DNA of 1,258 nt. Source: Escherichia coli. Its GTDB lineage: Bacteria; Pseudomonadota; Gammaproteobacteria; Enterobacterales; Enterobacteriaceae. Where the stretch lies: assembly GCF_003334385.1 (NCBI RefSeq), contig NZ_QOWN01000118.1. The stretch is one strand, 5' to 3'. Each line of letters opens with the position of its first letter. The first letter of the stretch is position 1. Made by a program: the position numbers and the translations under genes. The notes beneath the pieces are model-generated. The model was not told the DNA's origin, did not search any database, and saw only the letters and a program-made list of their open reading frames with translations. Shown one piece after another: positions 1-39 of the stretch.

Positions 1-39
1 TGATCCTACCCACGTAATATGGACACAGGCCTAAGCGAG
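1..39. repeat. IS3 right terminal inverted repeat (IRR), adjacent to the orfB 3' end
   Basis: Window 1-39 is TGATCCTACCCACGTAATATGGACACAGGCCTAAGCGAG. The reverse complement of window 1220-1258 is TGATCTTACCCAGCAATAGTGGACACGCGGCTAAGTGAG. By my manual ungapped alignment about 28 of 39 positions are identical, including the terminal TGATC and the internal TGGACAC block. Confidence 0.9.

Follow-up and report, generated by a model that had tools for sequence, protein, structure and literature searches.

The insertion sequence studied here carries a target site of Dam methylation at each of its two extreme ends, which raises the question of whether these sites couple its transposition to the passage of the replication fork or merely reflect what the transposase recognizes. 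We addressed this question with a 1,258-bp stretch of Escherichia coli DNA (hereafter the window), for which the original prediction had named the element as IS3, placed a GATC within the terminal TGATC at both ends, and proposed on the precedent of IS10 and IS50 that replication-generated hemimethylation of these sites might control transposition. The feature is real and correctly located, and its connection to Dam is known for IS3.

From tip to tip, the window consists of one complete E. coli IS3 in reversed orientation, with the IRR tip at position 1 and the IRL tip at position 1258 (Table 1). Loci annotated as "IS3-like element IS3 family transposase" match window positions 1-1258 at 100% identity, and the same full-length match at 100% is found on the F plasmid (NC_002483.1), which has two IS3 places, so the naming of the element holds. 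An IS3 place covering at least 80% of the window is present in 3817 of 5426 complete E. coli genomes, where the genomic contexts differ. The element shows the features by which the IS3 group of the IS3 family is recognized, i.e., two overlapping open reading frames, a -1 frameshift motif with a downstream structure, and a DDE domain combined with an N-terminal helix-turn-helix (HTH). Its terminal inverted repeats are imperfect and have 5'-TG...CA-3' tips as the family requires, and orfB ends at position 31 inside IRR. The ATG of orfA is preceded by an AGAGG Shine-Dalgarno motif on direct reading of the sequence, while the list of open reading frames gives this gene as 894..1202 from an upstream GTG. 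Fused OrfAB proteins of 387 aa are present in the annotation, and precomputed records place Pfam PF01527 (HTH_Tnp_1) on identical fused proteins as well as PF00665 (rve), PF13333, PF13683, and PF13276 (HTH_21) on identical proteins. Residues D135, D195, and E231 are invariant in an alignment of 20 relatives.

Table 1. Features of the IS3 copy, in window coordinates.
Feature	Position	Strand	Details
IS3, complete, orfA then orfB	1..1258	-	100% identity to annotated loci and the F plasmid
IRR, right terminal inverted repeat (standard orientation), tip TGATCC	1..39	.	39 nt, 72% complementary to 1220-1258
GATC (Dam target), IRR tip, overlapping the conserved TG	2..5	.	kept in 16/16 IRR ends of the IS3 clade
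TGGACAC block, IRR	20..26	.	32-end consensus
orfB, 288 aa, DDE/rve catalytic domain	31..897	-	list of open reading frames; ATGA overlap with orfA
Hairpin, 10-bp perfect stem, 16-nt loop	886..921	-	arms 921..912 / 895..886; starts 5 nt after the slippery site
orfA, 99 aa, HTH regulator / N-terminal transposase part	894..1193	-	ATG at 1193
A-AAA-G slippery motif, -1 frameshift giving the OrfAB transposase	927..931	-	CCAAAAGG on the - strand
IRL, left terminal inverted repeat, tip TGATCT on the - strand	1220..1258	.	inverted repeat; upstream of the orfA start
TGGACAC block, IRL (GTGTCCA on the + strand)	1233..1239	.	sequence and 32-end consensus
GATC (Dam target), IRL tip	1254..1257	.	kept in 15/16 IRL ends of the IS3 clade

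Over its 1258 bp, the window has exactly two GATC sites, which lie at 2-5 and at 1254-1257 as had been predicted. The + strand starts with TGATCC and ends with AAGATCA, which places the sites within TGATC...GATCA, and thus both fall into the outermost 5 bp of the 39-bp inverted repeats. Their number is ordinary, given that dinucleotide shuffles contain 3.0 +/- 1.85 sites and at least 2 sites in 162 of 200 cases. For ATC at positions 3-5 behind a given TG tip the prior is around 0.015 (about 1/64), and the two ends, being homologous repeats, do not count as independent. What goes beyond chance is the conservation of this placement among relatives. The interior of IS3 holds no GATC where 2.9 would be expected (P(0)=0.045), and we considered avoidance of internal sites as a conserved property, which was rejected since relatives carry between 0 and 6 of them.

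Whether the tip is under constraint can be read from relatives of the element, which we gathered from E. coli genomes, plasmids, and one genome per species. A homologue search with the OrfB protein returned near-identical IS3 proteins only, and the diversity therefore comes from a representative search and a genome scan. To define the ends of each relative, we took the highest-scoring inverted repeat with TG...CA tips that encloses orfA and orfB. Several of these ends are backed by direct repeats of 3-4 bp, the length of the target-site duplication in the IS3 family (AAC for L003, GTA for L011, ATC for L014, and TTA for L049; the window itself has no flanks), while poorly scoring automated calls were ignored (L019, L020, L024-26, L029-31, L038, L041, L059, L077, and L091, among others). 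The resulting IS3-clade set comprises 16 elements that range in OrfB identity from 100% to ~55% and reside in Escherichia, Shigella, Salmonella, Klebsiella, Superficieibacter, Vibrio, Parashewanella, Alcanivorax, and a Desulfuromusa metagenome-assembled genome (MAG). TGATC is kept in 31 of their 32 ends while positions 6-19 have heavily drifted, which argues that the tip is under constraint. The sole end without GATC is the IRL of the Parashewanella curva element (L016), which reads TGATG and has a TGATC end as its partner. In the consensus of all 32 ends, conserved blocks cover positions 1-5, ~10-12, 19-26 (tGGACAC), and 32-39 (TAAG(T/C)GAG), and the latter two probably form a transposase-binding subdomain separate from the tip. 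This layout is like that of the IS3-family elements IS2 and IS911, whose ends are bipartite with an outer cleavage domain, an inner protein-binding domain, and TG...CA tips (PMC3299598).

Individual ends deviate from this picture in two ways. Two plasmid-borne elements, L002 of Escherichia albertii and L003 of Salmonella, read TGGATCAC instead of TGGACAC at IRR positions 20-27, a change that gives the putative transposase-binding block a GATC of its own. On E. coli plasmid pE300010_105, a pseudogenized IS3 relative (L006) whose annotation notes a frameshift and an internal stop shows decay of the IRR tip at its right end, with GGGTAGATTCA in place of GGGTAGGATCA, and has thereby lost the GATC, which is a single anecdote.

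The distribution of tip sequences follows the transposase. In a neighbor-joining tree of OrfB, TGATC tips mark one monophyletic clade of enteric, Alcanivorax/Desulfuromusa, Vibrio/Parashewanella, Acinetobacter, and Orbaceae (L081) elements, with Arcobacter as a separate occurrence (the branch of L012 is artefactual, its translation being frameshifted). Sister clades keep tips without GATC equally firmly, with TGGAC in elements of Alphaproteobacteria and TGAAT in a group spread over Pseudomonas, Vogesella, Aeromonas, and Desulfuromonadales, and TGACC, TGAGG, and TGGGC occur as well. Such non-GATC tips (TGGAC, TGAAT, TGAGG, and others) are the majority among the OrfB relatives examined, and the tip pentamers of IS2 and IS911 are not known to contain GATC, either. 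Going by these sequences, the tip pentamer covaries with the transposase irrespective of whether it contains GATC, and a tip type that follows the OrfB tree is what would be expected for a cleavage site recognized by the transposase. TGATC tips are also found in Acinetobacter (L048, L049, and L067), Alcanivorax sp. DP30 (L013), the Desulfuromusa MAG (L014), and Arcobacter cryaerophilus (L032), i.e., in hosts outside the classical Dam/SeqA/MutH orders, which suggests that the tip can be maintained without a need for Dam. The simplest reading would then be that TGATC is the cleavage subdomain recognized by this transposase lineage and that its conservation is not owed to Dam as such.

We had also compared host groups directly and found TGATC at both ends in ~4 of 7 lineages from Enterobacterales, Vibrionales, Alteromonadales, Aeromonadales, and Orbales versus ~4 of ~35 elsewhere. 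This link to hosts of the Dam clade was dropped as evidence, given that the monophyly of the TGATC clade confounds it and that the search was seeded from E. coli. As side observations, GATC methylation has been reported in the literature for one Acinetobacter isolate, and the near-identical ends (TGAATCGCC...TAGACAC) of L043, L084, L085, and L061, whose hosts are Pseudomonas, Vogesella, Aeromonas, and a Desulfuromonadales MAG, show that a single IS3-family lineage has spread over distant hosts.

A Dam effect on IS3 has a history of its own. Spielmann-Ryser et al. are said to have obtained more IS3-mediated cointegrates in dam- hosts in 1991 (Mol Gen Genet 226:441-448), a finding that Mahillon and Chandler reportedly restated in 1998. 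A dam- host is hyper-recombinogenic and SOS-induced, and the rise in cointegrates could therefore be indirect. A 2015 mBio paper lists IS3 together with Tn5 and Tn903 as controlling transposition through hemimethylated GATC, though as a secondary statement (PMC4659465). The case already in the literature is this very element, at 100% sequence identity and with both GATC sites at its tips, and it comes with an identical proposal, namely that Dam methylation and hemimethylation modulate transposition; the hypothesis is not new. The suggested coupling to Dam agrees with that published statement, while the upkeep of the tips themselves is, as argued above, better assigned to transposase specificity.

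E. coli methylates every GATC that is accessible. A preprint on the methylome of the K-12 strain MG1655 describes high GATC methylation genome-wide and does not have IS3 among the hypomethylated IS elements that it reports, which weakly fits normally methylated IS3 tips, each copy contributing only two sites. In a Klebsiella methylome, a consistently unmethylated GATC lies just downstream of a transposase gene of the IS3 family (IS2 group) (PMC7985491), and this is the pattern that would be expected if a protein occupies the IS end and excludes Dam.

Comparison with the classical Dam-regulated elements helps to define what kind of control IS3 could be subject to. The ends of IS3 share one hallmark of IS10, IS50, and IS903, a GATC within the terminal sequence that the transposase uses; they have neither a GATC that overlaps a promoter nor a restriction of the sites to the inside end. 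IS10/Tn10 moves by cut-and-paste and has a GATC within its terminal transposase sequence, where methylation is inhibitory and post-replication hemimethylation activating; this site is found at the inside end only, several bp from the tip, and a second GATC lies in the -10 element of the transposase promoter. In IS3, by contrast, each end has its GATC at positions 2-5, no promoter contains one, and the family transposes by copy-out-paste-in. For IS50/Tn5, methylated Dam sites lower the use of ends (cf. Yin, Krebs and Reznikoff 1988, Dodson and Berg 1989). Further differences from IS50 concern symmetry, and the symmetric sites of IS3 make any discrimination between its ends by Dam impossible.

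The GATC sites of IS50 are confined to the inside end and overlap the promoter region, which enables Dam to discriminate between movement of IS50 and of Tn5. In both IS10 and IS50 the sites are positioned further in from the tip than in IS3, whose site is 1-4 bp from the cleaved bond, placing its methylated adenines much nearer to the chemistry. A consensus scan found no sigma-70-like promoter in IRL and no promoter-like site that overlaps the tip GATCs, and a scan of abutted ends with all 64 possible 3-bp spacers found no spacer-independent promoter across them; a junction promoter formed by abutted tips was rejected on these grounds. Given that IS3 has neither a promoter GATC nor a junction promoter, the part of the IS10/IS50 mechanism that works through expression is absent. 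The precedents invoked in the original prediction are therefore relevant, but the analogy is incomplete, as the sites of IS3 occupy the cleavage position at each of its ends and promoters are free of them.

We think it somewhat probable that the transposase cleaves IS3 at tips that are Dam sites by coincidence and that full methylation lowers their use. The outermost 5 bp, TGATC...GATCA, would constitute the cleavage subdomain engaged by the DDE catalytic core of OrfAB, with a pentamer set mainly by the lineage of the transposase, and the GATC in this pentamer makes each tip a substrate of Dam in E. coli. Methylation would fall on A3 of the non-transferred strand (5'-TGmATC) and, on the transferred strand, on an A located 3 nt from the reactive 3'-OH (5'-GmATCA-3'). 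Full methylation would then lower end usage and IS3 would be most active with hemimethylated or unmethylated tips, a state that arises just behind the replication fork or after conjugal entry, F being a carrier of IS3. Our sequence analysis shows the identity of the element, its sites, their place in the repeats, and their conservation, and the Dam sensitivity comes from the literature; that the effect would be direct through the two tip sites and that methylation would be inhibitory are inferences.

A further extension, which we regard as a long shot drawn from geometry, is that methylation of the tips carries information about strand history that biases the choice of the donor end and times the integration of circles. 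Since the transferred strands lie on opposite strands, each sister behind the fork would have one end with a methylated transferred strand and one end without, and this difference might favor one of the two ends as the donor when copy-out-paste-in begins with its asymmetric step. The excised circle would consist of one old and one new strand, and the GATC sites of its abutted tips would be hemimethylated from the moment of formation. Remethylation of the circle tips by Dam could then act as a timer on integration.

The principal alternative to inhibition by tip methylation is that the GATC is incidental, with TGATC being just the cleavage sequence of this lineage and the dam- phenotype arising indirectly through SOS induction, hyper-recombination, or altered supercoiling or replication. 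We consider this possible but rather doubtful. It draws on the same comparative data that define the tip as a clade character of the OrfB tree: TGATC is kept in hosts outside the Dam/SeqA/MutH orders, and the TGGAC, TGAAT, and TGACC tips of sister clades are equally conserved. The prior of ATC behind TG is low at about 1/64, yet IS lineages are many. What speaks for a direct role instead is that the transferred strand would have an m6A at a distance of 3 nt from the scissile bond and that the end activity of IS10 and IS50 is altered by methylation inside the terminal transposase site, as reportedly established by Roberts, Hoopes, McClure and Kleckner in 1985 for IS10 and by Yin, Krebs and Reznikoff in 1988 for IS50. 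The published listing of IS3 among elements controlled via hemimethylated GATC (PMC4659465) points in the same direction.

Alternatively, Dam might act through transposase expression by methylation of a promoter, either native or at the circle junction, in the manner of pIN of IS10 and not via the activity of the ends. The GATC sites overlapping the transposase promoters of IS10 and IS50 provide the model for this idea, and circularization abuts the tips such that two GATCs come to lie within 11 bp upstream of IRL. With the sites of IS3 solely at positions 2-5 of each end and with promoter scans that recovered no sigma-70-like match in IRL and none across the ends over all 64 spacers, we deem this route very improbable. 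Pure chance, in which positions 3-5 have no functional meaning, would be compatible with a GATC count at or below expectation but is hardly credible in view of the conservation of 31 of 32 ends despite OrfB divergence to ~55% identity and diverged repeat positions 6-19. We retain inhibition of end usage by tip methylation as our working model.

If methylation of the tips acts directly, movement of IS3 would be tied to replication and to the conjugal entry of F and other plasmids, which would help to explain bursts of IS3 activity in new hosts. The idea of coupling transposition to replication via methylation goes back decades in the case of IS10 and IS50, and it has been put forward for IS3 before. 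What our analysis adds is comparative: the TGATC tip is ancestral to a whole transposase clade, one that is also found in hosts outside the Dam/SeqA/MutH orders. Because the TGATC clade extends beyond these orders, the Dam sensitivity of IS3 in enterobacteria would be a host-specific overlay on a transposase recognition sequence and not the reason for it.

Besides the termini, the region of the frameshift contains two further repeats. A perfect 13-bp inverted repeat, TGAACTCAGCCTG / CAGGCTGAGTTCA at 858-870 / 1071-1083 with 200 nt between its arms, brackets the frameshift region, where ~0.01 repeats of this kind would be expected by chance. Its stem decays to 10-12 of 13 pairs in enteric relatives and to 5-8 of 13 beyond them; it is probably not a conserved RNA structure, being without covariation and lost outside the enteric relatives. 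The hairpin located behind the slippery motif pairs poorly at the aligned positions in the relatives from Vibrio and Parashewanella (4-6 of 10), where its structure is different or shifted. Its pairing survives two-sided changes in the Alcanivorax relative (10 of 10) and in the Desulfuromusa relative (9 of 10), and it is probably the known stimulator of frameshifting in IS3. The second arm of this hairpin overlaps the ATGA that combines the stop codon of orfA with the ATG of orfB.
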